Below are positions 35,999 through 49,898 of a DNA stretch of 64,000 nucleotides, piece by piece. The DNA is taken from the NCBI GenBank assembly GCA_963722255.1, contig CAVRJO010000001.1, positions 96,001 to 160,000 of the forward strand, given 5' to 3'. Every line of letters begins with the position of its first letter. The stretch's first letter is position 1. A program made the position numbers and the translations under genes. Below the pieces are notes generated by a model, which saw only the letters and a program-made list of their open reading frames with translations, was not told where the DNA came from and searched no databases. Source of the DNA: Candidatus Babeliales bacterium. Lineage in GTDB: Bacteria; Babelota; Babeliae; Babelales; JANWKD01.

Positions 35999-36181
35999 AT
36001 GAATTTTTCGACTCTCACTTATCTCCTTATTTTTTTTAGTAGCAGCGCACTCAGTGCAGCATGCCCAACTTGTGTAGCAAAAGTTCAACAGAACTCACCA
36101 CCCTTTTTTGCAGATGAATTTTATACATCAAATAATGATGATCTTGATATCGATTTAGTAACAACCGGAACGGGTTCTTAA
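35999..36181 (+). CDS. Small secreted CxxC protein
   Basis: AAGGA RBS, signal peptide followed by ACPTCV. Confidence 0.6.
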   Translation: MNFSTLTYLLIFFSSSALSAACPTCVAKVQQNSPPFFADEFYTSNNDDLDIDLVTTGTGS

Positions 36182-37398
36182 CAATTACTTTGCTTCAAAA
36201 GGCGAATAATAGCTTTATAATCTTTCTGTTGTCCAAGATGAAAGAATACTTTATAAAATGTCGTTTCTTTATTTTCGGTTTCAGCAAGCATCATAATTGC
36301 AATTTCTTCCGCTGTCCCCCCGCCATAGCCTCTTATCGTTCGATCGGCCCCATGCTTTAATAACGTTGAAACAATCGTTAAATTACCATACTTTGCAGCA
36401 TACATAAGGGCGGTCATTCCTTGATGGTCTCGCACATTAATTAGAGCTTTGCATGCTAGTAGTTCATTTGAGGCAAAATAGTTATTATAGATCGCACTAA
36501 ATATTAATGGTGTCGCACCTGAATTATCTACGTTATTAACATCCGCACCATTTGCAAGCAATAAAGCTGTTGTTTTATGCGTATGATTAAATATCGATAA
36601 TGCTAGCGACGTTACTCCTAAACTATTTCTATTATTAACATACGCCCCCCTTTGAATTAGCTCTTTAACTATTTCAAAAGGAAGTTGTTTATACATAAGG
36701 GGTGTTTTCCCCTGATTATCAATTTCATTAACATCAATCTTTCGGCTCAAAAAAACCTTAAGCACATTTATATTATTATTTTTTGCCAACGCATAACTGA
36801 ATAATGGCGTCTCATATCTTACCATAACTTTTTGATGTACATTTGCGCCATGATCAAGTAAAAAATCAACCATTTCTGGATATCCGCTTTGTACAGCAAT
36901 TACAATAGGTGTAAAACCTTTCTTGTTCTTTTGATCAACCAGCGCACCTGCAGAAAGCAGTAACTGTGCATATACTAAAGATCTGCTTTTAATAGCACAT
37001 CCCAAAGGAACATCATCACGCACATTACTATTATTAAGATCTATTCCTGTTGTTAAACAATCACGGACATCATCGTAACTATATTTACCCCGATTTTTCA
37101 TTGCTAAGCATAAAGCCTCTACAAAATTAAAGTTTACATCAATCAATAACTGTACAAAACTACAAAGCTCATCCGGACATTGTTTATGATCATCTAACTT
37201 AATTTTTTTTTGCTTTATTTCTTGGGCAACAACAATTGCCGCTCTCATTCTCAATGATGGCATTGGTTTAAAAAGCATCTTAGATTCTCTATCGCCTTCC
37301 TCCATGCCATAGACATTATTTTTTCCAACTGATAGAACGAAACTTATAATAACAAAATACAATGAGCAGCTCTTACGTCGTTTATTTATTATTTTCAT
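36178..37398 (-). CDS. Secreted ankyrin repeat protein with an N-terminal SOCS-box-like segment
   Basis: About 7 ankyrin repeats (GFTPIVIA, GKTPLM, GATPLIFSA, GMTALMYAA); PSLRMRAAIVVA...CPDELCSFV. Confidence 0.9.
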   Translation of the reverse strand: MKIINKRRKSCSLYFVIISFVLSVGKNNVYGMEEGDRESKMLFKPMPSLRMRAAIVVAQEIKQKKIKLDDHKQCPDELCSFVQLLIDVNFNFVEALCLAMKNRGKYSYDDVRDCLTTGIDLNNSNVRDDVPLGCAIKSRSLVYAQLLLSAGALVDQKNKKGFTPIVIAVQSGYPEMVDFLLDHGANVHQKVMVRYETPLFSYALAKNNNINVLKVFLSRKIDVNEIDNQGKTPLMYKQLPFEIVKELIQRGAYVNNRNSLGVTSLALSIFNHTHKTTALLLANGADVNNVDNSGATPLIFSAIYNNYFASNELLACKALINVRDHQGMTALMYAAKYGNLTIVSTLLKHGADRTIRGYGGGTAEEIAIMMLAETENKETTFYKVFFHLGQQKDYKAIIRLLKQSNC

Positions 37399-37451
37399 TA
37401 GGCATTTGCTTTCTCGTCAATAACTGGGCTGTTATTTATATACAAATTTTT

Positions 37452-39849
37452 TTATGAATATCTCTTCAAAAACGGAATAACCGAATCAGGATTTAATGAT
37501 AACGATGTTATACCTAAATCAACTAAGAACTGGGCAAATTCAGGATAATCTGATGGCGCTTGACCACAAATACCTATTGGTTTTTTATGACGCAATGCAC
37601 CTTCAATAACCATTGCACACATTTTTTTCACTGCCTGATCTCGTTCGTCAAAAAGAGGTGCAAGAAGCGCCGAATCTCTATCAACGGCAAGAGTAGTTTG
37701 TGTCAAATCATTTGATCCAATCGAAAATCCATCAAAAAGCTTACAAAATTCATCAATGAGGAGAACATTTGATGGTATTTCAACCATCATATAAATTTTC
37801 AAACCATTATGACCTTGAACAAGCCCATACTTCTTCATAACCGTTATCACTCGCCAAGCTTCATCAACGGTTCTAACGAAAGGAATCATAACAATAATAT
37901 TGGTAAGGCCCATAGTATCTCGAGCTTTTTTTAATGCAGCACATTCAAGTGCAAAAGCAGGCTCATACAATGGATTATAATAACGAGATGCGCCGCGTAA
38001 TCCTAACATCGGGTTACTTTCTACGGGTTCAAAAAACGAACCACCAAGTAAATCTCGATATTCATTCGTTTTAAAATCAGAAAAACGTACTATAACAGGA
38101 TGAGGATAAAATGCCGCGGCAATAGATCCGACACCTTGGGCTAAAGAATCAATAAAAAAATCTTCACGTGTAGCGTAAGCGCTTGTTAAAAGATCCAGCT
38201 CATGAATAATTTTTACGTCCTTAATAACAGCGTTTTGAGTAAATGCCATTGGATGAGCTTTTATTGTGTGCGCTATTATAAATTCTACGCGCGCCAGACC
38301 AACTCCAGATACAAAAGGCAATTGACACACCACAAAAGCATTATTTGGATCAGCAATATTAACCAGTATTTCTTTTGGTGGCTTTACAAGTTTTGTTGTA
38401 TCAATTTCTGAAATGGTAAAAGGTATCTGACCATTATAAACAAATCCTTGTGCGCCCTGGCTACAATCTAAGGTAATTATGTGCCCATCTTTTATTAAGG
38501 TAAGCGAATTGGCTGCGCCTACAACAGCAGGAATACCCAATTCTCTGACTTACAATTGCTGCATGGCATGTTCTCCCACCTTCTTCGGTTACAATACCGG
38601 CCGCTTTTTGCATCAAAGGAACCCAATCGGGATCTGTCATTTGAGTAACTAAAATGTCTCCCTCATTGAAAATGGCTGCATCTTTTGCGCTTTTAATGAT
38701 ACGAGCTTTTCCTGATACTATTTTTGTACCAACACTTTGCCCTTCAACAAGAATCTGTTGCGCAGCATCTTTTTTATGAGCCTCTTGCAAAGAATAAAGT
38801 TGCATAAAAGCACTCTGCTTCTTTAAGGAATGTACCGTTTCCGGACGCGCTTGAACAATATAGAGAGAACCATCTAATCCATCTTTTGCCCATTCTATAT
38901 CCATAGGCGACCAAAAACCATTGAGTTGCGTATAATAGTCCTCAATGAGCACAATATTTTTTGACAGCTCTTGTATTTCGGAGTCAGTTAAACAAAATCT
39001 TTGAGCATCAGATTGTTCAACAGGCACCCATTCAACTTTTTTTTGCTCAGTTGCATAGATTAGTTTTTTTCTCTTAGAACCTATCACTTTTTTTATAATG
39101 GGATTAAATCCCTCTTTAAGCGTTGTTTTAAAAACACGATACTCATCAGGATTAACAATGCCTTGAACCACAGCTTCGCCAAGTCCATACGATGCATCAA
39201 TCATAATTAAATCTTTAAAACCTGTTTCAGTATCCAATGAAAATGCAACGCCGGAAACAGCTAAATCTGAACGCACCATTTTTTGTACAACAATTGAAAG
39301 CGCTATATCAAGATGATCAAAGCCTTTTGTTGAACGATACATAATTGCTCTATCGGTAAATAATGAGGCAAAACATTTTTTACATGCCTCTATCAACTGT
39401 TTTTGACCTTGAATATGCAAAAAACTTTCTTGCTGTCCTGCAAATGATGCTCCAGGAAGATCTTCCGCGGTTGCTGAAGAACGAACTGCAACATCAACTT
39501 CATCAGTATGATATTCTTTTGAAAGCTCTTGATATGATTGAGCTATTTCATCAAATAAATCTGAAGGCATCTCTGCTTTACAAATGAGTTCTCGAACTTC
39601 TTTCGCTTTTTTAGTAAGACTGGATAAATCATTAAGATCTATCGAGTTTACTATTTTTTTTATGAGCGGTGCCAGACTATTATAATCTAAATAATGCCGG
39701 TATGCTCGAGCAGTTATTGCAAAACCGTCAGGAATTTTAACTCCTTTCTGAGTCAAATATTGAATCATTTGACCAAGAGATGCAGTTTTACCACCAACTA
39801 ATGGACTATCATGTATACCCACTTGATGTAGCGATTTAATATATTCCAT
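37452..39849 (-). pseudogene. ppsA: Phosphoenolpyruvate synthase, split by a 1-nt insertion near 38547
   Basis: VGGK, VAVRSSATAEDLP.ASFAGQ, GGRTCHAAIVS-(extra C)-RELGIPAVVG, GVGLAR.EF, NPMLGLRG, SIGSNDLTQ, GICGQAPSD. Confidence 0.9.
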
Positions 39850-39856
39850 TAATAGT

Positions 39857-40408
39857 TTATTTCCTTTCGTATGTTGCCATTAATTCTGCTTTTTCCAAGA
39901 TATGACCATCAATTGCTTTCATTATTTCATTTTTTGAAGCACCTTCAGGAAGATTAAGCATACTATCTAAAGCATAAAGAATAAAATAATACCTGTGCAT
40001 TTTATCAGGAGGGCAAGCTCCGTGGAATTCATTTTTCCCGCTATTGGTCAAACCCTGTTTTGCACCCTTTAGTGTACCAATATTACTATTTTCATCAATT
40101 TTGTTTATAAAGGGAGGAATATTAAAAACAATCCAGTGAACCCAAGGGTTAGGTTTTGTAGCAGGCGCATCAGGATCTTCCATGATGAGCATAAAACTTT
40201 TTGTACCTGCCGGTGCATTCTGCCATTCTAAAGGAGGATTTATATCTTTACCATCACACGTATAAGCTGTTGGTAGAACAGTACCATTTTTAAATGCCGG
40301 ACTCGTTAACTGCATAAAATTTCCTTCCGCTTCACTTTTTTTTAGATTTAACAATAGAAAGCATATAGTTACTACAATAATCAATACACAAACAATTCTT
40401 TTCATCAA
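39857..40408 (-). CDS. YbhB/YbcL family Raf kinase inhibitor-like (PEBP) protein
   Basis: LTSPAF, YTCDG, DPDAP, WVHW, GACPP, HRYYF.LYALD. Confidence 0.93.
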   Translation of the reverse strand: MMKRIVCVLIIVVTICFLLLNLKKSEAEGNFMQLTSPAFKNGTVLPTAYTCDGKDINPPLEWQNAPAGTKSFMLIMEDPDAPATKPNPWVHWIVFNIPPFINKIDENSNIGTLKGAKQGLTNSGKNEFHGACPPDKMHRYYFILYALDSMLNLPEGASKNEIMKAIDGHILEKAELMATYERK

Positions 40409-40832
40409 TTCCCCTTTTTTTATACTATTGATCCTTCAATTCTACTAATAAATAATTGCTAAAATCATTGTTTTAGCATTCTTTTTCTAACAAGCTATAC
40501 AAAAAAATGAAAAAAAAGCTATACTGTATAAAATAATAATTATTCATACATGATAGAAATAGAATTTATATCTATTCTTCAACGATAAGGAGCCTATGAT
40601 GAATCGTAGTTCATCTCATACCTTTCCTACTTCTCTTACTCCAAAACACAACAAGTCAAATAAAGTCATTTTCAATGATTATTAGAACTTCAATGTGTGG
40701 CTCCATTTCTTTATGTATTCCCGCCGTGGATATAACAATTTGCACATTATAGTGCTTTTTTAACCAAATTCGATCTTAATTTATTAATATACTCATAAGG
40801 GTTTATTCTATTAAACCTTAAGGATTTTTTAT

Positions 40833-41996
40833 ATGAAACGTTTTTTCCAATCCCAAACTATAGCTACTGGACTCGCTATTTTTTCTATGTTTTTTGGCGC
40901 AGGTAATTTAATTTACCCTCTTAATGTTGGATTTATTGCCGGTGCAAAAAATCTCTGCGCTATTTCAGGCTTTATGGTTACCGGTGTTCTTCTACCTTTA
41001 TTGGCACTCATAGCAATAATACTTTTTAATGGTGATTATCATGAGTTTTTCAATCGACTTGGTAAAATACCAGGCGCACTCTTTATTTTATTCTGTATGC
41101 TTATTATTGGGCCTCTTTTTGCAATTCCTCGGATTGTTACTGTTGCACATATCATGATTGCACCTTTCATAGGAAATATTTCATTGCCAATTTTTACTTT
41201 TCTTTTCCTTGCATTAACTTTTCTTGGGACGTATAAAGAAAGTCGCATTATTAATCTACTTGGTAATGTGATAAGTCCACTCTTGCTTGTTTCTCTTATA
41301 ATTATTATTGTAAAAGGTCTTCTTTTCCGTGGAGAAATGACACAAGAAATTACATCAAGTTGTCTGGCACTCTTTTGGGAAAGTATTAAGATCGGTTACA
41401 AAACACTCGATATGCTTGGAGCCATTTTCTTCTCTTCTATTGTGATCACTATCTTAAGAGAAAAGCTTAAAGACCAATCAGAAAAATCGCTAAAAAAATT
41501 AGCGATTATGGGTTTAAAAGCAGGTCTTCTAGGGGTAGCCTTACTCGCAATTGTTTACCTTGGAATGAGCTATTTGGGTGTATTTCATGGTGCTGGACTT
41601 GGCCATCTCAATGAAGGAGAGCTTTTTAGTGCACTTTCATTTAGAATTCTTGGCTCACATGGTGCAATTATTATTGCTCTTGCTGTTTTAATGGCGTGTT
41701 ATTCGACAATTGTTGCACTGACTGCTGTAGTATCAGAATATGTTCAGAAAACCATTTTTATCAATAAAATAAACTATATACAAGCATTACTCATAGTGTT
41801 GGGTATAGCAGCAGTTGTTTCTAATTTTGGATTAAGCAAAATTTTAAAATTTTCTGGCCCTTATATTGACGTTTGCTATCCCGCACTTATAGTACTTGTG
41901 TTCGTTAATATTGCTTATAAATTATTTGGTTTCAAACCAGTAAAAATACCAGTGTTAGTAACCCTATTAGTCTCTTCATTATTTTATTTATGGTAA
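40833..41996 (+). CDS. brnQ: Branched-chain amino acid:cation symporter
   Basis: GLAIFSMFFGAGNLIYP, IGPLFAIPR, GYKTLDMLGA, LMACYST. Confidence 0.92.
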   Translation: MKRFFQSQTIATGLAIFSMFFGAGNLIYPLNVGFIAGAKNLCAISGFMVTGVLLPLLALIAIILFNGDYHEFFNRLGKIPGALFILFCMLIIGPLFAIPRIVTVAHIMIAPFIGNISLPIFTFLFLALTFLGTYKESRIINLLGNVISPLLLVSLIIIIVKGLLFRGEMTQEITSSCLALFWESIKIGYKTLDMLGAIFFSSIVITILREKLKDQSEKSLKKLAIMGLKAGLLGVALLAIVYLGMSYLGVFHGAGLGHLNEGELFSALSFRILGSHGAIIIALAVLMACYSTIVALTAVVSEYVQKTIFINKINYIQALLIVLGIAAVVSNFGLSKILKFSGPYIDVCYPALIVLVFVNIAYKLFGFKPVKIPVLVTLLVSSLFYLW

Positions 41997-42067
41997 AGAA
42001 GGTTGTAAAAAATTAGATTTTTCTTACACTAAATGCAGAATAACTTTATTACATCGAAAGTCTACCT

Positions 42068-42232
42068 ATGATTACAAAGAATTTTTTATTGGTTGTTGTT
42101 TGTTTTGGAATTGCAATGACTTTAACAAGCTGCAAAAAATCAAGACAAGAAATTGTTGAAGTTCAAGAAAAAAGAATTTCAGGACCTTTATCAGATAGCT
42201 CTATTGAATGGTCAGAGTCTGATTATAAATAA
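42068..42232 (+). CDS. Small lipoprotein (54 aa; absent from the ORF track)
   Basis: MITKNFLLVVVCFGIAMTLTSC lipobox, followed by a terminator. Confidence 0.7.
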   Translation: MITKNFLLVVVCFGIAMTLTSCKKSRQEIVEVQEKRISGPLSDSSIEWSESDYK

Positions 42233-42238
42233 CTAAAA

Positions 42239-42278
42239 AAAAAGAGGATGAATTATAATAATAACTCATCCTCTTTTT
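42239..42278. terminator. Bidirectional intrinsic terminator
   Basis: aaaaagaggatga...tcatcctcttttt with A-run on the left and T-run on the right. Confidence 0.8.
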
Positions 42279-42301
42279 CATGAAAATTTTTTTTGAAAAA
42301 A

Positions 42302-42614
42302 AACGCTTTCGCGTTGGAGGTAATAACATGGTTTTCACCACGCCCCTTTTACGCTCAAGTCTCTACATGCTTAGTCTTTATACCTACATATACCTCCTAA
42401 AGACCGGTAACAGTATAAGTCACATGGTTTGTTCCTTTGTTCATGATACTAATCATGTAAACCTCTCATGAACATCTTACTTTTATTTACCCCTATTAGT
42501 CTAAATTAGTAAGAGAATCTATTAACTAATCGGTGAAGTTTCTTTTACGGAAAACTTCTAAAATCCGGCATGCTGCCCCAAACGTAATGGGAAAGCTTTC
42601 GCTTTTACCTCCAA
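42302..42614 (-). ncRNA. Candidate large structured non-coding RNA of unknown family
   Basis: 10-bp closing stem (42605..42614 with 42314..42323), nested stems, three GAAA tetraloop hairpins, dedicated promoter, boxA and terminator; no credible ORF. Confidence 0.7.
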
Positions 42615-42615
42615 A

Positions 42616-42724
42616 TTTTCAAAGAACTTTTTTGAGAAAAAGTGCAGTAATTAGAATTTCTTCTAGCTTCTCTACTCCCGTTCCTCTTATTTACAACTTT
42701 AGCATAAATATTTCTATTTGTCAA
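42616..42724 (-). promoter_or_regulatory. Sigma70 promoter with boxB-like hairpin and boxA antitermination element
   Basis: TTGACA (42724-42719), 17 nt, TGcTAAAGT (-10 at 42701-42696); TAGAA-GAAA-TTCTA hairpin; GTTCTTTGAAAA (42627-42616). Confidence 0.75.
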
Positions 42725-42829
42725 GCAAAATTTGAAAATTGCATATTTTTCTCTGTAAACTCTAGAATTTTTGTCTAAAATCATGCTAGGTTAAAAAAAG
42801 CTAAGATAAAACTGCTTTATGGAGCTTAT

Positions 42830-43141
42830 ATGATAAAAAAGTGTATACTATTTTTATTGATTTGCATGAAAATACATGATTGTAGTTCAATGGGTAATAA
42901 CCGTAAAGATTCATCGGATGAAGATACATCTCAGCACGTCTACAATACTCGAGAGCTCTTCTCTTCAACTGAAATAAGTTTTTATGTTTCTCCTCCAACA
43001 AGTCCCCGAGACATAGTACCTACTAAACCTCACAAAAAACCAAACTGTTTTTTACAGTGCTTAAAAAAACTTTGTTGCTGTTTATGTTGTTGTAAAAAAA
43101 ATGACAAACGTCTCATTGTCAGTTATGACACTATTCAATAA
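42830..43141 (+). CDS. Small secreted protein with a C-terminal cysteine string
   Basis: GGAG RBS, signal peptide, CFLQCLKKLCCCLCCCKK. Confidence 0.7.
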   Translation: MIKKCILFLLICMKIHDCSSMGNNRKDSSDEDTSQHVYNTRELFSSTEISFYVSPPTSPRDIVPTKPHKKPNCFLQCLKKLCCCLCCCKKNDKRLIVSYDTIQ

Positions 43142-43215
43142 AGCAAAATTTATAATTCACTTTCACCATAAACATCAGTATACTGCTCATCGTTACTAAA
43201 TTATTATAGTATGAA

Positions 43216-44289
43216 TTGGATATAATGAAGCTGCCGATTGTATTCGTCTTGTACGATAGCATAACTAACTCTATTTTTGATTCTCAAATAGCACAACCTT
43301 TACTTCAGCAACAAACTGATCTTGGCACAGTAATCACCATTGTTAGCTTCGAAAAGAGAATGGTGACTCAAGAATTAAACACGATTGCACAGCAATATCC
43401 AACGCTCAATTTTATTTTTTTAAAAAATAGAATCTTCGTGCACAAAGCTTTACTCTCTACATTAGCAAACAAATTACATGCATTATTAAGTAAGCTTGCC
43501 TCATATAAACTCATAGCGCGAGGACCTATAGCAGGATATCTTTGCATGCAAGCTTTGCAAAAAACAAACTGTTTTGAATTCATTATTCAAGCGCGAGGAA
43601 TTTTGGCTGAAGAATATCGTTTTACCCATGCAAGAACAAACAATAATTACCTAAGAGCTCTTCATTACTTTCGTTCATATCAATTTGAAAAAGTCGAAAA
43701 ATCGGTCTATAGCAAACAAACTGCTTATGTTGTTCCAACAACAATAGAAGCAGTCAGTCCTGCATTAAAAGAATATCTCATACAACATTATCAGGCTGAT
43801 CCAAATATGATTCATATTGCGCAGATAGATATTCCTTTACCATTTTCGACCGACGTAATACAGAAATGGAGAAAAATCACTCGTTCTGAATTAGGTGTTT
43901 CTGAAAAAACCTCTATCTATTGCTATAATGGCTCATTAAAACCGTGGCAATGCCCTCAAGAAACCATCTCCTTTTTTAAAGAACAACTCATTAAAAATAC
44001 CGATGTGTATTTATTAGTTCTTACACAAGATAAACATGATTTTGAAAAAATCATTCAAAACTATTTGATTGATCCTACAAAATACAAAGTAATTACTGTT
44101 CCTCATAAAGAAATCTACCGTTATTTAGCCGGTTGCGATTCGGGAATCATATTCAGAGAGAAAAATAGTATAAACTGGACATCGCGACCTACAAAAATTT
44201 TAGAGTACCAAGCAGTAGGTCTTCCTATCATTCACAATAATACGATTGCAATGCTTCAGAATTCTTCTTCAATACAAGAAGTTCAGTAA
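43216..44289 (+). CDS. GT-B fold glycosyltransferase (family 4-like)
   Basis: ARG..AEEY, YCYNGS..PWQ, RYLAGCDSGIIFR, PTKILEYQAVGLPII. Confidence 0.85.
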   Translation: MDIMKLPIVFVLYDSITNSIFDSQIAQPLLQQQTDLGTVITIVSFEKRMVTQELNTIAQQYPTLNFIFLKNRIFVHKALLSTLANKLHALLSKLASYKLIARGPIAGYLCMQALQKTNCFEFIIQARGILAEEYRFTHARTNNNYLRALHYFRSYQFEKVEKSVYSKQTAYVVPTTIEAVSPALKEYLIQHYQADPNMIHIAQIDIPLPFSTDVIQKWRKITRSELGVSEKTSIYCYNGSLKPWQCPQETISFFKEQLIKNTDVYLLVLTQDKHDFEKIIQNYLIDPTKYKVITVPHKEIYRYLAGCDSGIIFREKNSINWTSRPTKILEYQAVGLPIIHNNTIAMLQNSSSIQEVQ

Positions 44290-44801
44290 CATTTTGACAA
44301 AATTGGAGAAAGAACTCCTACAAATAAACAAATGGTAAAAACCAGTTCAGTCACAAGCACACCAACTCCTAAACGACTTACTAGGCTATTGGTTGACCTT
44401 ATTTTATCGCAATCTTCAATGTATCCATTGAGAGAGTTAATAAGAATTTTACTTCCTATTTTTTGAACGCTAGAATTTAGTTTAGCTATTTTATCATCTT
44501 TTTTACTATCTAAAAAATTATTTTTTTGATAGCGCATTAATTTTTTTAATAATCGATATTTTTTTGGTTTGTGCTCCTGTAATTCTGCAATATTTTTCTC
44601 CAAAAATGGCCTTATTGAAACAATGCCAATCAAAAAAGATCGTGATAAAAAATCGCAGATCTCTTTGTGCTCATTGAGGCAAGAAACAATGTGCGTATCT
44701 TTTGAACTATTTTCAATATCAACGTTTTCCTTCATTTCCATACCCATAAGAAAAGAAAAGTTCAAAACATATACAAGGGTTACCGTAAAAAAATATTTCA
44801 T
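44283..44801 (-). CDS. Hypothetical secreted protein with C-terminal TM
   Basis: AAGGAG RBS before MKYFF; signal peptide; paralogous to the interrupted upstream gene. Confidence 0.7.
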   Translation of the reverse strand: MKYFFTVTLVYVLNFSFLMGMEMKENVDIENSSKDTHIVSCLNEHKEICDFLSRSFLIGIVSIRPFLEKNIAELQEHKPKKYRLLKKLMRYQKNNFLDSKKDDKIAKLNSSVQKIGSKILINSLNGYIEDCDKIRSTNSLVSRLGVGVLVTELVFTICLFVGVLSPILSKCY

Positions 44802-44817
44802 CCTGGCTCCTTTATAG

Positions 44818-45944
44818 TTATGCATAACAATTTAAAAAAAGAGGAAGAAACGTTGAAAGGATTCCAACACTACAGGTAATAAAACATACGGTGCATGCAC
44901 CACATATACTGTTGCGCCAACATCGTGAACTTTTAATTTTTAATTTTTTTTCATTTTCAATTTCTAACCATGCACCCATAAGCAGCTGAGCGAAACTTAT
45001 CTTCATCTGATTATCGGGATAGAAAAAATTCTTCTGAAATAACAGTTTTTTTTGAGAATCATTCTTATTGTTTTCAATAAGCTGTGCAATGCGATAATAT
45101 TCTTGGGGAGATTTATTTTTTAATTCTTCAACTTTCTCTTGCTCGAGAGGATCGATGTATTACAAGCCTAAACCTCAAAAAAATAATGATGCAATTATTA
45201 TGAATGAGCTACGTGAAATTTATCAAGAAACGCCTTCCTATGGCTATCGGCGCATGACAGTAGCTTTAAGAGAAAATGGTTTTTTGGTTAATCATAAAAA
45301 AGTTTTTATGTTGCTTAAGATAGCGGGCATCCAGGCCATTTACCCTCGCAAAAAAACAACCATACGAAATCAGGGGCACAAAGTATTTCCTTATTTATTG
45401 CGTGGGTTGCTTATTAATCGACCAAATCAGGTTTGGCAAGTAGATATAACCTATATAAAAATACGGGGTGGTTTTGTATATTTGGTTTGCTTAATTGATG
45501 TTTTTAGTCGAAAAATCATGGGATGGAAATTGTCAATTTCTCTTGATACAGCGTTATGCATAGAGGCGTTCAATAGTGCTTTGCAACATGGTATTCCAGA
45601 AATTGTTAATAGCGACCAAGGATGTCAATTTACCAGTGCTCTGTGAGGTTTTTAATATAGCGTTCTTTTCCAGTATGCTTTATACCAAAAAATTGTTCTG
45701 CCAAAGCGATTATATCGATTTCAACATTATCTTCAACATCATGTGAATTCATTGAAGTCGAACCGGATGAATATAATTCCTCATCCAGATCTTTGATCAT
45801 GCTGATCTCTTTTTTCTTCACTGATCTTCTTAAGGTATCTTTCCATGATCCTTCTTCAGATGAATAACCAGGTTTTTCCAATTCCATGCTCATTAATCTT
45901 AATGAAATGAACAGGGAAATTATGAGTAGATTACTTATTTTCAT
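44818..45944 (-). pseudogene. Hypothetical secreted protein interrupted by an IS3 internal fragment
   Basis: Deleting 45148..45635 rejoins ...KNLTEH|LEQEKVEELKNKSPQEY... in frame through to the stop at 44818. Confidence 0.75.
45143..45637 (+). mobile_element. IS3-family orfB internal fragment; no terminal repeats seen
   Basis: YGYRRM, WQVDITYI, PEIVNSDQGCQFTS; first 386 nt near-identical (inverted) to 31452..31837. Confidence 0.9.
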
Positions 45945-46070
45945 ACAAAACTCTTCTTATAGACTTTCTATGACTATAAGAGTTTTTACAAAGTTGATGC
46001 AATGGTTTTCTATTTAAAAAAAGGAAATAGTGTAATCAAATATTGTAACTACTCATAAAATAAAAAAATT

Positions 46071-47342
46071 TTAGATAAGCAATCCGACGATCATTGCAGA
46101 AAGCAAATTGGATAATGATCCACCAAGCACAGCTAATACGCCTAATTCGGTAAGCCATTCTCTTTTTTCGGGAACTAATGAACCAATGCCACCAATTTGG
46201 ATACCAATGCAAGAAAAATTGGAAAACCCGCACAATGCATACGTCAATAATGCAACTGACCGTTCAGAGAAGTTTTGTGACAACAAATGCCCATAGGCAA
46301 TAAGCTCATTAATGGTCACTTTTATCCCCAGCAAATTCCCGGCTTTCAATGCTTCTTGGCCTGTAAAACCAAGCAAGTAACCAAACGGAGAAAACAGCCA
46401 TGAAAAGATATATGACAAATTTATTATTGGAAATTGCACCGATAATCCTAGATACTGCAAAAGCTCCTGTACCTGTAATGAGGAAAACTCAAGAACTTTA
46501 TTAAATAATGCAATAAGTGAAATAAACGAAACCAACATTGCGCCAACATTGAGCGCAAGATATAATCCATCAGTTGTTCCTGTTGAAATAGCATCAAGTG
46601 CATTTTTTGATGAACTGGTAACTGCATGAGCACCTGCTGCTGTTTCTGGTTTTTCAGTTTCAGGATACAATATTTTAGCTATCATTAGGGTACCGGGAAT
46701 CGCCATGATACTTGCTGTTAATAAATGCACGGCAGGAATTCCCATAGCAGCAAAAACCATAAGAATTGCACCACTAATGGTACCCATACCACTCACCATG
46801 ACAACAACAATTTCGGATTTGGTCATATTTTTTAAATAAGTACGCACTAATAACGGCGCTTCTGTTTGGCCTAAAAAACTATTTGCAATAGCACATAACG
46901 TTTCAGCTCCTGAAGTGCCTAAAAGAGGTCGCATTATAAAACTCATCGCAGAAACAATCTTTTGCACAATTCCAAGATAAAAAAGCAATGACATAAGTGC
47001 ACCAAAAAAAATGATAAGAGGCAAAACCTTAAAGGCAAAAATAAATGCCCATGCCCCCGATGCATCAATTAAATTCCCAAATAAAAAACGAGAACCTTCA
47101 TCAGCACAACAATAAATTTTATTAATACCATCTGCCAAAGCATGTACAATGCTCACTCCAATTGAAGTTTTTAGCATACAAAATGCTAAAACAATTTCTA
47201 AAAGCAATGCCTTAACAATTAAAAGATAATTTATTGAACTTCGCTTGCGGGACGCCAGAATCGCAATGCCAAGAATTATAAAAATGCCCAAAAGATTACA
47301 ATAACGATTATACTGTAGCAAATATGATATCATAAATCTCAT
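46071..47342 (-). CDS. nupC: NupC/CNT family concentrative nucleoside transporter
   Basis: EGSRFLFG, FAFKVLP.IIFF, FLGQTEAPL, NELIAY, YALCGFSNFSCIGIQIG. Confidence 0.93.
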   Translation of the reverse strand: MRFMISYLLQYNRYCNLLGIFIILGIAILASRKRSSINYLLIVKALLLEIVLAFCMLKTSIGVSIVHALADGINKIYCCADEGSRFLFGNLIDASGAWAFIFAFKVLPLIIFFGALMSLLFYLGIVQKIVSAMSFIMRPLLGTSGAETLCAIANSFLGQTEAPLLVRTYLKNMTKSEIVVVMVSGMGTISGAILMVFAAMGIPAVHLLTASIMAIPGTLMIAKILYPETEKPETAAGAHAVTSSSKNALDAISTGTTDGLYLALNVGAMLVSFISLIALFNKVLEFSSLQVQELLQYLGLSVQFPIINLSYIFSWLFSPFGYLLGFTGQEALKAGNLLGIKVTINELIAYGHLLSQNFSERSVALLTYALCGFSNFSCIGIQIGGIGSLVPEKREWLTELGVLAVLGGSLSNLLSAMIVGLLI

Positions 47343-47376
47343 CCCGAATGTCTAGAGTGTCTATAAAAAATCTATT

Positions 47377-48462
47377 TTATTTTTTTACTGTTAATGCCGC
47401 AAGTGCTTGTTGTTTTTTACGCTCTTGTCGGCCATAAATGATGAGTGCATCTATAATTTCATCAAGATCACCTTCCATCACCATATCAAGTCTTTTTAGA
47501 GTAAGATCAATTTGATGATCAGTAATTCGATTTTGAGGATAATTATAAGTACGTACTTTTTCAGAGCGTAACGCTCCTCCAACCATCTCTTTTCTTTTTT
47601 GGCTTTGTTCAGCTTCATGCTTTTCTTTTTGCGATGCAAGAAGACGAGCTTGAATAATTTTCATCGCTTTAGCTCTATTTTTATGCTGCGACCGCTCATC
47701 CTGGCAGGCAACAACAATGCCTGACGGAATATGCGTAATGCGCACTGCTGAGTCCGTTTTATTGACATGCTGCCCACCGGCACCACTTGCTCGGTAGGTA
47801 TCAATACGTAAATCAGAAGGGTTTATTGCAATATCAACTTCTTGCCCTTCAGGCAATACAGCAACAGTTGCCGTTGACGTATGTATTCTTCCTGCTGTTT
47901 CTGTTTGCGGAACCCGTTGCACGCGATGAACGCCAGACTCATATTTTAAATGAGCGAACACTTTTTTTCCTTGAATATGCAAAATAGCTTCACGTATTCC
48001 ACCCAAATCAGTTGAACTTGAATCAACCAAAGAAACTTCCCACCCTTTTGAAAGAGCATAGTTGGAATACATCTTAAGAAGATCTCCCGCAAAAAGAGCA
48101 GCTTCTTGTCCACCGGTTCCCGCTCGAGTTTCAAGAAAAACGGAAGTATCATCAAGAGGATCCGGAGGATATAATACCTCATCAAGTTCATTCTGATGCA
48201 CTTTAAGCTTTTGCTCAACAGCAAGAACCTCTTCGGCAAAAAGCTCAATTAATGCAGGATCTGTGGCATTTGCTTGTTGTTCTTTAAGCTCATTAAGTTC
48301 GCGCTGTGTTGCTTCAATCGCTTCATGAATCCCAAGAAGATTCTTAAGATATGAATGCTCCCTCTGAATTTCTTGACGTTGCATGACTTCAAGTGAGGGT
48401 TGAAGCAATTTTTGCTCTAGCTGGCTATACCGCTCTTGTAACTGTTCCCATTGAATATCCAT
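47377..48462 (-). CDS. prfA: Peptide chain release factor 1
   Basis: RAGTGGQEA, ESGVHRVQRVPQTE (PxT), GAGGQHVN, RTYNYPQNRITDH; follows rpmE; alternative TTG start at 48474. Confidence 0.97.
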   Translation of the reverse strand: MDIQWEQLQERYSQLEQKLLQPSLEVMQRQEIQREHSYLKNLLGIHEAIEATQRELNELKEQQANATDPALIELFAEEVLAVEQKLKVHQNELDEVLYPPDPLDDTSVFLETRAGTGGQEAALFAGDLLKMYSNYALSKGWEVSLVDSSSTDLGGIREAILHIQGKKVFAHLKYESGVHRVQRVPQTETAGRIHTSTATVAVLPEGQEVDIAINPSDLRIDTYRASGAGGQHVNKTDSAVRITHIPSGIVVACQDERSQHKNRAKAMKIIQARLLASQKEKHEAEQSQKRKEMVGGALRSEKVRTYNYPQNRITDHQIDLTLKRLDMVMEGDLDEIIDALIIYGRQERKKQQALAALTVKK

Positions 48463-48497
48463 AGGTTGTTGCAATTTCGTTTAAAAAAGACCTATTA

Positions 48498-48710
48498 TTA
48501 GGCTCTTTTAATACCTTTTTTAAAGCGTTTTTCAAACTTTTCAATTCTTCCAGCAGTATCAAGGAACTTTTGTTCGCCGGTATAATAAGGATGACATGCA
48601 GAACAGATTGTTGCTCTGATATCAGTCAATGTTGATTGTGTAGTAAATGAATTGCCGCATGCACAATGTGCAACAACTTCATGCATTTCGGGATGAATAG
48701 CTTGTTTCAT
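48498..48710 (-). CDS. rpmE: 50S ribosomal protein L31 (Zn-binding type)
   Basis: [31 protein letters not shown]. Confidence 0.97.
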
Positions 48711-48941
48711 AAGAAAAACTCCTAATAATCATATAATGAATCTAAGTACCAATTAGTATCTCTAAAATCCAATATCTTGTAAAGTTACTAGTATAAAAAC
48801 TCCTATTCCAATTTTTTATGTTTTTTACCTGTCTAACTTATTTTTTTTAAAAATTATTTACAAATATAAATATTTATTGATCTAATGTCAAGCTTTATGG
48901 TACCTTTATAATAGAAATTATGTAAAATAGAGGCATTTATT

Positions 48942-49898
48942 ATGAAAAAACAGTTAAAATTGATAAAAATTATCATAATTCCAGTAATATGCATACTTTG
49001 CATGCCTTTTACTAAGGCTACGGCTCCTTTTGGTAGATGCCAACAACCTATTCTTAAAAAAGCACCCGCTAAAGCTCCTGTAAAAAAGATTGGCGATTGG
49101 TCGCTTATCGAAGAACCTCAAGAAGTTCCGCTTTCTGAAGATACGCTTCTTGCAACGATTAAAGAAACGGCTTTTTTTGCTATAGATTCTGAAAATTTCG
49201 AATCATTTAATAGATGGGTAAATTTACTGAGCTGTATATATAATTGGATGGAACAATCGAAATCTTCCGCTAAAAAGCAGTATCTTAAAGATTTAGAGCA
49301 ATTGTATTTGATATCTGATTTTGCAAATCTTCTAGCGAGAGAATTTTCAGATGCAAAATCTCATACTGATGTTCAAAAAAATGCATGGAAAGAAACAGCT
49401 CAAACCATGATACATAAATTGGTAGCCATAACTGCTTCTACCTTATCCATTTTTGAAAAAACATCCGACAACTCATCAGCATGGAAAAAAACGGTTCCTA
49501 AACCATCAGAATTAGAATCGTTACATAGAAAATATGGTAACATTTTAGATAATAAACCAACAAAAGAATCTTATGACATTTATTTTAAAAATTATATTGC
49601 AAATAATGTTTTTTCTGGAAAAACATTAAAATCGATTGTTGATGACCTTGAAAAAATTATCTATCGCTATAATCATAGCTACTTTCATAAATCAAGCGAA
49701 GTAGCACTTGCTCAATTCTGCCAAAAATTTCTTGCATATATACAAAACCATTTTGGTAATGGTTTATTTTTTAGCTCAGATTCATACCTGGATAGATTTA
49801 AAAACAGCAAAGATATTGCCTCAAAAACGATACTAACAATTTCAAAGGAACTATTCGATTTCTTTCATAAATTTATAACCAAAATAAGTAGAAACTAG
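48942..49898 (+). CDS. Hypothetical secreted protein
   Basis: 318-aa ORF, signal peptide, GAGG RBS. Confidence 0.7.
   Translation: MKKQLKLIKIIIIPVICILCMPFTKATAPFGRCQQPILKKAPAKAPVKKIGDWSLIEEPQEVPLSEDTLLATIKETAFFAIDSENFESFNRWVNLLSCIYNWMEQSKSSAKKQYLKDLEQLYLISDFANLLAREFSDAKSHTDVQKNAWKETAQTMIHKLVAITASTLSIFEKTSDNSSAWKKTVPKPSELESLHRKYGNILDNKPTKESYDIYFKNYIANNVFSGKTLKSIVDDLEKIIYRYNHSYFHKSSEVALAQFCQKFLAYIQNHFGNGLFFSSDSYLDRFKNSKDIASKTILTISKELFDFFHKFITKISRN

Follow-up and report, generated by a model that had tools for sequence, protein, structure and literature searches.

The 64,000-nt stretch of Candidatus Babeliales DNA analysed here, called the window below, comes from a genome of 1.6 Mb in two contigs (G000) and carries a gene for a structured RNA that the first-pass annotation had read as a transcribed and processed RNA of unknown class. 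Positions are those of the window, and the element lies on its minus strand. The expression signals and closing stem annotated there are all in place on that strand, beginning with a sigma-70-type promoter (42696-42724; TTGACA, a spacer of 17 and TAAAGT with extended TG, the -35 at 42724-42719 and the -10 at 42701-42696), which has 10 of 12 consensus matches together with the extended TG in a consensus scan and whose -35 hexamer and next 9 nt are unchanged in a relative of the same genus (G001). The leader contains a hairpin with a GAAA tetraloop cap, read in the sequence (42652-42665), and a 12-nt boxA-like motif with core TCTTTGAAA (42616-42627), whose start lies 13 nt ahead of the first G in a 10-bp closing stem, P1. 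A terminator scan places an intrinsic terminator directly against P1 (42294-42315), made of a GAAA-capped 5-bp stem (42315-42302) and a U-run, and farther on a second, terminator-like site with a long hairpin (42238-42279) that is common to the element and a small convergent open reading frame (ORF); two such sites compare with 0.6 ± 0.8 in shuffled sequences. The putative pairing of boxA with downstream sequence as a processing stalk is A/U-rich and lies beyond the first terminator. Folding of the 411-nt stretch gives -108.7 kcal/mol (z = -4.34), a value equalled in none of 100 shuffles, and inspection of the ORFs found none of note on the element.

Relatives of the element exist in other genomes. 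BLAST of the family returned homologs in two genomes of another genus (G002 and G003, genus g2; 69% identity) and a short match in G001, and exact-pattern scans found two known relatives in genome contigs and one metagenome contig, L027, a close relative whose downstream neighbours are those of G000. A more distant homolog lies in a genome of another family (G112). The first terminator is kept in L027, and the leader hairpins of relatives are capped by GAGA in L027 and by GAAA in G003. Comparison of the G000 window with the ORFs of loci L010 and L031 revealed no conserved gene neighbourhood across genera, the gene neighbours of the element changing from genus to genus. Because the neighbours differ in each genus and the element has its own promoter and terminators, we regard it as an independent gene, and the evidence supports a separate gene for a structured non-coding RNA, equipped with promoter, boxA-like leader and terminators of its own.

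At Rfam gathering thresholds the whole window yields three tRNAs only and nothing at the element, and no signature of transfer-messenger RNA (tmRNA) had been recognised in it earlier. That statement was wrong: in E-value mode the Rfam tmRNA model RF00023 matches 42342-42596 with 31.2 bits (E = 1.8e-10 in a 1.4-kb search), below its gathering cut-off of 47 bits, so that the Rfam check returned no accepted family and nevertheless made the ancestry known. The match spans model positions 23-340 of 374 and aligns pseudoknots PK1, PK3 and PK4 and both strands of helix P2, the parts outside it being the first 22 and last 34 positions, which form the tRNA-like domain; within the match, Infernal sets 57 model positions of the tag region opposite 13 nt of the element. 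Three homologs also match RF00023, with 35.9, 31.5 and 18.2 bits (the last being L027), and those of G112 and G001 have no match at E up to 0.001. Checked against five tmRNA features, the element has one, P2 and PK1 to PK4 in canonical order, and lacks the other four, and we therefore do not file it as a tmRNA. Homology to tmRNA is nonetheless very likely, given the Rfam match, the order P2-PK1-PK2-PK3-PK4, the acceptor-like stem and a leader motif at the same spacing as in tmRNA genes. Of the earlier description, the independent structured RNA gene thus stands, and the unknown class gives way to a tmRNA homolog.

A score of 31.2 against a cut-off of 47, the 18.2 bits of L027 and the G112 homolog left unmatched at E up to 0.001 are what one might expect if the element belonged to a new RNA class unrelated to tmRNA and the Rfam match had arisen by chance. 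We consider this highly improbable in view of the E-value of 1.8e-10, the independent matches of three homologs to RF00023, the collinear module order, and the shared GCAUGC ... GCAUGUAG helix, acceptor-like stem and identical leader motif and spacing. In the reverse direction, a covariance model built from the core of the element and its homologs (R1) retrieves canonical tmRNAs across the order and nothing else of note. We refer to the element and its homologs below as the tmRNA paralog.

The retained parts follow the tmRNA body closely. P1 pairs perfectly over 10 bp between a 5′ strand beginning GGAGGUA (42605-42614), the counterpart of the tmRNA acceptor stem, and a 3′ strand (42314-42323) followed by AACG. 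Both strands of P2, the 5′ strand with helices P2a-d and the tmRNA-typical GCAUGC (42568-42591) and the 3′ strand with the tmRNA-typical GCAUGUAG context (42343-42370), align to P2 of the model, are kept in homologs and covary. PK1 (42535-42567) aligns to PK1 of the Rfam model; its stem 1 is kept in all five full-length homologs with both-sided changes at two positions, and its stem 2, the register of which varies between genera, is plausible and the least certain of the set. PK2 (42475-42530) begins 4 nt after PK1 and combines a 7-bp hairpin with pairing of its 24-nt loop to the next linker, with both-sided changes in three of seven pairs of stem 1 and in two of seven of stem 2, the latter paired in 97% of cells. 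Stem 2 of PK2 is not significant in the single sequence, where an equally long duplex occurs in 270-502 of 1000 linker shuffles, and we accept it because of its two compensatory columns and its homology with canonical PK2. PK3 (42418-42474) shows both-sided changes in five of nine pairs of stem 1 and two of seven of stem 2; this second stem is the pseudoknot that had been proposed as possible, and it proved real. PK4 (42374-42417) is the most conserved part and has one compensatory change in stem 2 of G112; it is also retained in a mini version of the gene in G001. The helices listed by the first-pass annotation are present and mostly kept in relatives, except for CCGG/CCGG, the 5′ CCGG region of which forms PK1 stem 1 locally in relatives.

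The linker of PK4 reads AGGAGGU in family f1, a word complementary to the 3′ strand of P1 and to the 3′ end of 16S rRNA, and in G112 the same linker holds a CCUC-containing word with complementarity to P1's 5′ strand. A switch or alternative pairing that involves this linker may exist. The AGGAGGU word, strongly resembling a Shine-Dalgarno sequence with an AUG 3 nt on in PK4 of G000, G001, G002, G003 and L027, also raises the question whether the element is an mRNA for a tiny peptide, encoded from PK4 or from a frame in the PK2 loop, or else a cis-acting leader or 3′ untranslated region of a neighbouring gene. The PK4 frame, however, is M-stop in G000 and G001 and elsewhere yields 5-residue peptides that are unrelated, and G112 lacks the word; PK4 coding was accordingly rejected as trivial in its frames and not conserved in G112. 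A PK2-loop peptide, for which two frames were followed by eye, was also rejected, as neither stops nor residues are conserved across homologs. With flanking genes that differ in each genus and a promoter and terminators of its own, the element is very unlikely to act in cis or to encode a peptide.

What has been lost is the machinery of trans-translation. The third pair of P1 is A:U in all four homologs that have P1 (G000, L027, G112 and G001) and not G3:U70, the determinant recognised by alanyl-tRNA synthetase; canonical copies start GGGGGCG, compared with GGAGGUA in the element. On the 3′ side of P1, both canonical copies of the genome have ACCA where the element has AACG, and an encoded CCA is absent after P1 in G000, L027 and G001. 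In place of the T-arm and its 7-nt T-loop there is a 6-bp hairpin capped by a GAAA tetraloop (42327-42342), so that a 4-nt GNRA loop stands where canonical copies have the T-loop; between G000 and L027 this hairpin shows a compensatory change of U:A to C:G and a change of GAAA to GUAA in a hand-registered table, and it has GAAA-capped counterparts in G112 and G003. At the position of the D-arm and its loop lies a GAAA-capped hairpin (42593-42604) found only in G000 and L027, with nothing in its place in G112 and G001, and our helix check found both GAAA hairpins that adjoin the closing stem to be specific to G000 and L027. Since only 4 nt separate PK1 from PK2, resume codon, tag frame and helix 5 are all gone, and ARAGORN called no tag or tmRNA at the element, across the window or in the homologs. 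As read from these losses, the paralog RNA would be unable to be charged or to donate a tag.

Rescue can be accounted for elsewhere in the genome. G000 has two canonical tmRNA genes on the same strand (L001 and L002; G000:C1:795232-795599 and 797383-797822), which score 155.4 and 147.8 bits, lie 2 kb apart and about 650 kb from the element, and encode differing tags of 13 and 30 residues, ANFGLAAPALALS and ANAVKGDSSLAHLGYVSANAFGTWSAAAAA. G001 has one canonical tmRNA of the long-tag type, the canonical tmRNAs of G001, G002 and G003 score 143-149.5 bits, and a canonical tmRNA is present in every genome that bears the paralog. A single smpB copy was found in G000, where a second SmpB partner was sought and not found. 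With two canonical tmRNAs and SmpB, the paralog is not needed for rescue. Between L001 and L002 lie two small ORFs for membrane or secreted proteins, one with an HPD (J-domain-like) motif; no integrase is among the ORFs listed around the two loci, and a similar GC-rich stretch of about 50 nt follows both.

One could still imagine a working if unusual tmRNA, charged by another synthetase or tagless in the manner of reduced mitochondrial tmRNAs, which lack an mRNA-like part. Its closing stem is homologous to the acceptor stem, A-C-C follows that stem in G112, and the four-way junction of G000 with its two hairpins resembles a cloverleaf in outline. These likenesses are hard to reconcile with A3:U70 in place of G3:U70 in four of four homologs with P1, a tetraloop where the T-loop belongs, the missing CCA in G000, L027 and G001, the lack of any T-like arm in G001 and of an acceptor-like stem in G002 and G003, the silence of ARAGORN, and the presence of a single SmpB alongside canonical tmRNAs. 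We thus see very little room for a rescue-competent tmRNA and continue with a non-tagging derivative.

The leader carries the same signal as those of the canonical genes. The core TCTTTGAAA stands at -13 or -14 of both canonical tmRNAs of G000 and at -13 of the paralog, and it also occurs in the 16S leader and the 16S-23S spacer, which lends support to the original boxA reading. The 10-mer TTCTTTGAAA is not rare in the G000 genome, with 31 matches compared with 22 for a reversed control. Of the 31, one is located 64 nt upstream of 16S rRNA, two precede the two canonical tmRNAs by 5-6 nt and another is in the paralog leader, and a one-letter variant is found in the 16S-23S spacer after two spacer tRNA genes. 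A survey of 26 canonical tmRNA genes, the two of G000 and 24 of other Babeliales (contig-end loci L048, L051, L053, L056 and L064 and loci L013-L016 and L058, which had no ARAGORN coordinates, were left out), found the core word in 16, at -13 to -15 in 15 and at -24 in one, and several others had one-letter variants of it. The paralog leader is a tmRNA leader. With the word in both rRNA and tmRNA leaders and with NusB and Rho both encoded in G000, a boxA function is plausible, though the fixed spacing could equally mark a 5′-processing signal. The likeness to the boxA leaders of rRNA, where NusB and NusE mediate antitermination, lies in the same 9-10-nt core in the 16S leader and 16S-23S spacer of G000; the paralog word differs in standing only 13 nt before a structured RNA, and Nus binding to it is putative. 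In the literature searched, in which subscription journals were thinly covered, we found no description of boxA upstream of ssrA, the tmRNA gene. A side result is that, across the order, a boxA-like word of the rRNA type stands a fixed distance from the 5′ end of tmRNA genes.

The distribution of the paralog is narrow and crosses a family boundary. Among 151 sampled genomes of the order, R1 gave matches at E up to 0.001 in 54, with G000, G002 and G003 as outliers at 257-261 bits, G112 at 147.8 bits, the mini version of G001 at 28.3 bits and all remaining matches at or below 55.4 bits. ARAGORN identified a canonical tmRNA in 25 of the 27 loci examined behind these matches, the exceptions being the paralog of G112 and L052, which Rfam identifies as a canonical tmRNA (149.4 bits). 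A second sample of 151 genomes at phylum level, without G002, G003 and G112, returned G000 only at E up to 1e-12, and BLAST of the G112 element against all 261 genomes of the order returned G000, G002, G003, G112 and G203. The G203 match was rejected as a paralog, as it is a canonical tmRNA, and so were the weaker R1 matches in G128 (L052), G123, G040 and G203; a second R1 match in G123 adjoins tRNA-Ser. Overall, paralogs score 148-261 bits with R1 and 30 canonical tmRNAs 22.7-58.5 bits. The paralog is thus present in five of 261 genomes, including the mini version of G001, and in one metagenome contig, and it spans two families; all 10 genomes of the G112 family were covered and only G112 has it, and none was seen in G004, the fifth genome of the family of G000, which is 64% complete.

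In a FastTree tree built on 215 model columns, from which four spurious matches under 15 bits were dropped and in which the canonical copy of G003 had no match, the five full-length paralogs group together in a single clade (support 1.0), separate from the canonical tmRNAs that their genomes carry; this tree is only indicative because its alignment is fitted to the paralog model. The topology points to one old origin, which may have been a duplication or a transfer out of another lineage of Babeliales. Among canonical copies, the one closest to the paralog model is L071 (G203:C2, 1447-1807, minus strand), a tmRNA of family f3 that scores 58.5 bits and whose PK4 stem is identical to that of the paralog, a likeness that may bear on the origin of the paralog.

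Further evidence concerns selection. In a model-guided alignment of six sequences with 52 pairs, which includes two pseudoknot stems from outside the model, 94.5% of cells are paired and 14 of the 52 pairs show both-sided changes, compared with 6.2 ± 1.7 in shuffles (reached in none of 500); slid controls gave 20-59% paired cells and 0-4 both-sided pairs. Stem 2 of PK2, stem 2 of PK3 and stem 1 of PK4, with 19 pairs outside the model, are 95.7% paired with four compensatory pairs, a count reached in eight of 500 shuffles. Between G000 and L027 the element agrees at 257 of 295 aligned positions (87.1%), whereas the adjacent small ORF is 78% identical overall with 34 of 54 third codon positions unchanged, and the end of a transporter gene is 75% identical with 44 of 77, so that the third codon positions of the neighbours stand at 57-63% overall against 87% for the element. 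The parts retained in G001 are likewise 80% (36/45) and 88% (64/73) identical to G000, compared with 65% for the adjacent ORF. With both ends present, conservation above that of neighbouring synonymous sites and covariation, the element departs from what a neutral relic should look like, and we consider it probable that it is a selected, functional RNA.

The competing view, that the locus is a decaying remnant without a role of its own, left from a tmRNA gene that was duplicated or acquired horizontally, draws on the loss of both functional modules of tmRNA, on a paralog carried by only five of 261 genomes of the order, on the deletion of about 150 nt in G001 and on a terminal domain that varies between genera, and tmRNA pseudogenes and fragments are known from other bacteria, at least for the cases described by Hudson et al. 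2014 (PMC4131195). Decay, on the other hand, does not readily explain at least nine helices maintained by compensatory changes, nor a T-arm turned into a neat, covarying GNRA-capped hairpin, which is unlike erosion. The 87% identity to L027 against 57-63% at neighbouring third codon positions, the retained promoter, leader motif and terminator, and a metatranscriptome contig inside the element also argue against it, as does a paralog recognisable across two families while the paralog model gives its canonical relatives far lower scores. We therefore regard decay as unlikely, although it is the most serious of the alternatives, and retain a selected derivative as the preferred reading.

The metatranscriptome contig comes from a freshwater run (X2), is 210 nt long and covers 42353-42563, wholly inside the element; nothing else from X2 fell on the 1.5-kb stretch compared, where missing cover carries no evidential weight. 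It is 96% identical to the element, with seven mismatches and two gaps, and of six differences listed by position, our mapping puts four in loops or linkers, one in PK3 stem 2, where a U:A pair becomes U:G, and one in the 3′ strand of PK1 stem 2, which loses a U. We take the contig as a weak hint that a relative's copy is expressed, DNA carry-over being possible. The earlier words "abundant" and "processed" go beyond this, since this one 210-nt contig, from a close relative, is all the RNA evidence there is. A soil DNA run (X1) contributed two 151-nt contigs that are 100% identical to the element; X1 may be the source sample and brings no further evidence, and there too missing cover elsewhere carries no weight.

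We posit that the element is an RNA gene descended from a second copy of ssrA and is now a non-tagging derivative under selection, a reading to which we assign a probability of roughly 0.7. Transcription would start at the element's own sigma-70 promoter, run through a leader with the boxA-like word at the distance seen in canonical tmRNA genes and stop at the intrinsic terminator right after the closing stem, yielding a predicted RNA of about 300 nt, or about 400 nt with the leader. This RNA would retain the tmRNA body, P2 and four pseudoknots closed by an acceptor-like stem, and would have lost everything that trans-translation needs: G3:U70 (now A3:U70), the T-loop (now a GNRA hairpin), CCA, and the tag frame with helix 5. 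Since tRNA-like end and tag are lost, its role is probably other than rescue, which would be done by the canonical tmRNAs and SmpB encoded elsewhere in the genome.

As to mechanism, the paralog may act as a free pseudoknot ring that docks on the ribosome, or as a decoy that titrates factors for the tmRNA body or its precursor; either way, translation or rescue would be modulated and rescue itself not performed. Such a docking or decoy role is suggested by analogy, is tentative and has a low probability. In E. coli ribosome complexes, going by the structural description in PMC8363625, the 30S beak is encircled by a ring made of the pseudoknots, the mRNA-like domain (MLD) and helix 5 (H5), and among the pseudoknots only PK2 is described there as being in close contact, namely with the KH2 domain of uS3; docking of a free ring is proposed from this geometry. 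The more specific notion, that a stand-alone ring on the 30S beak, with PK2 on uS3 at the mRNA entry, regulates translation, hibernation or access of tmRNA-SmpB, is more doubtful still. The mini version of G001, with P1, P2 and PK4 under apparent constraint, suggests that part of the function may reside in that core and not in the whole ring.

Several observations weigh against these proposals. The tmRNA gets to the ribosome by way of its tRNA-like domain together with SmpB and EF-Tu; to our knowledge, no 30S affinity of the ring alone has been described. The G001 version, in which promoter, P1, P2 and PK4 are kept and PK1, PK2 and PK3 are gone with about 150 nt deleted and no T-like arm, fits poorly with a function of the whole ring, as it lacks PK1-PK3. 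In genus g2 (G002 and G003) the closing domain lacks conservation, and neither P1 nor the RNA ends could be placed. The covariation is only indicative because the six sequences are related and the nested helices were fitted to the model, the metatranscriptome contig, at 96% and not 100%, is that of a relative and could stem from DNA carry-over, and a distribution of five of 261 order genomes and one metagenome contig is narrow.

If the proposed role is true, the paralog would represent a regulatory RNA of a new class, one that derives from ssrA and binds the ribosome in intracellular parasites. The pseudoknots of tmRNA have long been seen as an accessory scaffold whose role is debated, and here a lineage appears to have kept, under selection, a copy with only the pseudoknot scaffold beside normal tmRNA genes. 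A functional paralog would mean that the pseudoknot ring can act on its own, and it would offer a natural dissection tool for asking what binds the ring without SmpB-dependent entry or tagging. Scans at Rfam gathering thresholds and ARAGORN miss tmRNA derivatives of this kind.

The surroundings of the element contain several further features. The small convergent ORF (42068-42232) has a lipoprotein-like signal peptide by eye, and the intergenic stretches on its two sides (41997-42067 and 42233-42313) are 91.5% and 95% identical to L027, a higher conservation than in the coding sequence that flanks them (75-78%). A 103-aa ORF (42830-43141, plus strand) that diverges from the RNA gene has a Cys-rich C-terminus, a run of C with K. 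No integrase was found among the ORFs around the element (36000-49000 and the ORFs of L010 and L031), which were inspected without a family-library scan; by eye, a 163-aa ORF about 2.5 kb from the element (45155-45646, plus strand) resembles the N-terminal part of an IS3-type transposase/integrase core and is apparently truncated. A PEP synthase/PPDK-like gene at 37452-39849 (minus strand) seems to be divided between two ORFs that overlap (38461-39849, 462 aa, and 37452-38540, 362 aa), which suggests a frameshift or a sequencing error. At 36178-37398 (minus strand) lies an ankyrin-repeat-like ORF of 406 aa, of a kind typical of intracellular parasites.

A comparison with known systems places the element next to tmRNA and apart from the derived forms of it that have been described. 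With tmRNA (RF00023) it shares the acceptor-like closing stem, P2 with GCAUGC/GCAUGU followed by PK1 to PK4 in order, and the leader motif and spacing of canonical tmRNA genes of Babeliales. It differs in having no G3:U70, 7-nt T-loop, CCA, resume codon, tag frame or helix 5, in scoring under the Rfam cut-off and not being called by ARAGORN, and in coexisting with canonical tmRNAs. No conserved tmRNA paralog without a tRNA-like domain was found described in the literature searched, where subscription journals were thinly covered. Among the close parallels are the tmRNA pseudogenes and ssrA fragments of PMC4131195, which are likewise extra, non-canonical ssrA-like copies beside a working one. 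As far as the cases described there go, these lack one end of the gene or are 3′ fragments at integration sites, whereas the element has both ends, its own promoter and terminator and an internal loss of the tag region, and its remodelled arms with GNRA loops show compensatory evolution across genera.

Mitochondrial tmRNA and the two-piece permuted tmRNAs of the alpha, beta and cyanobacterial types resemble the element as derived forms with parts missing or rearranged. The Rfam library searched contains all four of these families, and no match to any of them was reported. Mitochondrial and permuted tmRNAs keep the aminoacylatable tRNA-like domain, with the rest lost or split. Set against mitochondrial tmRNA, the element is its opposite: the pseudoknot body is kept and the tRNA-like features are lost.

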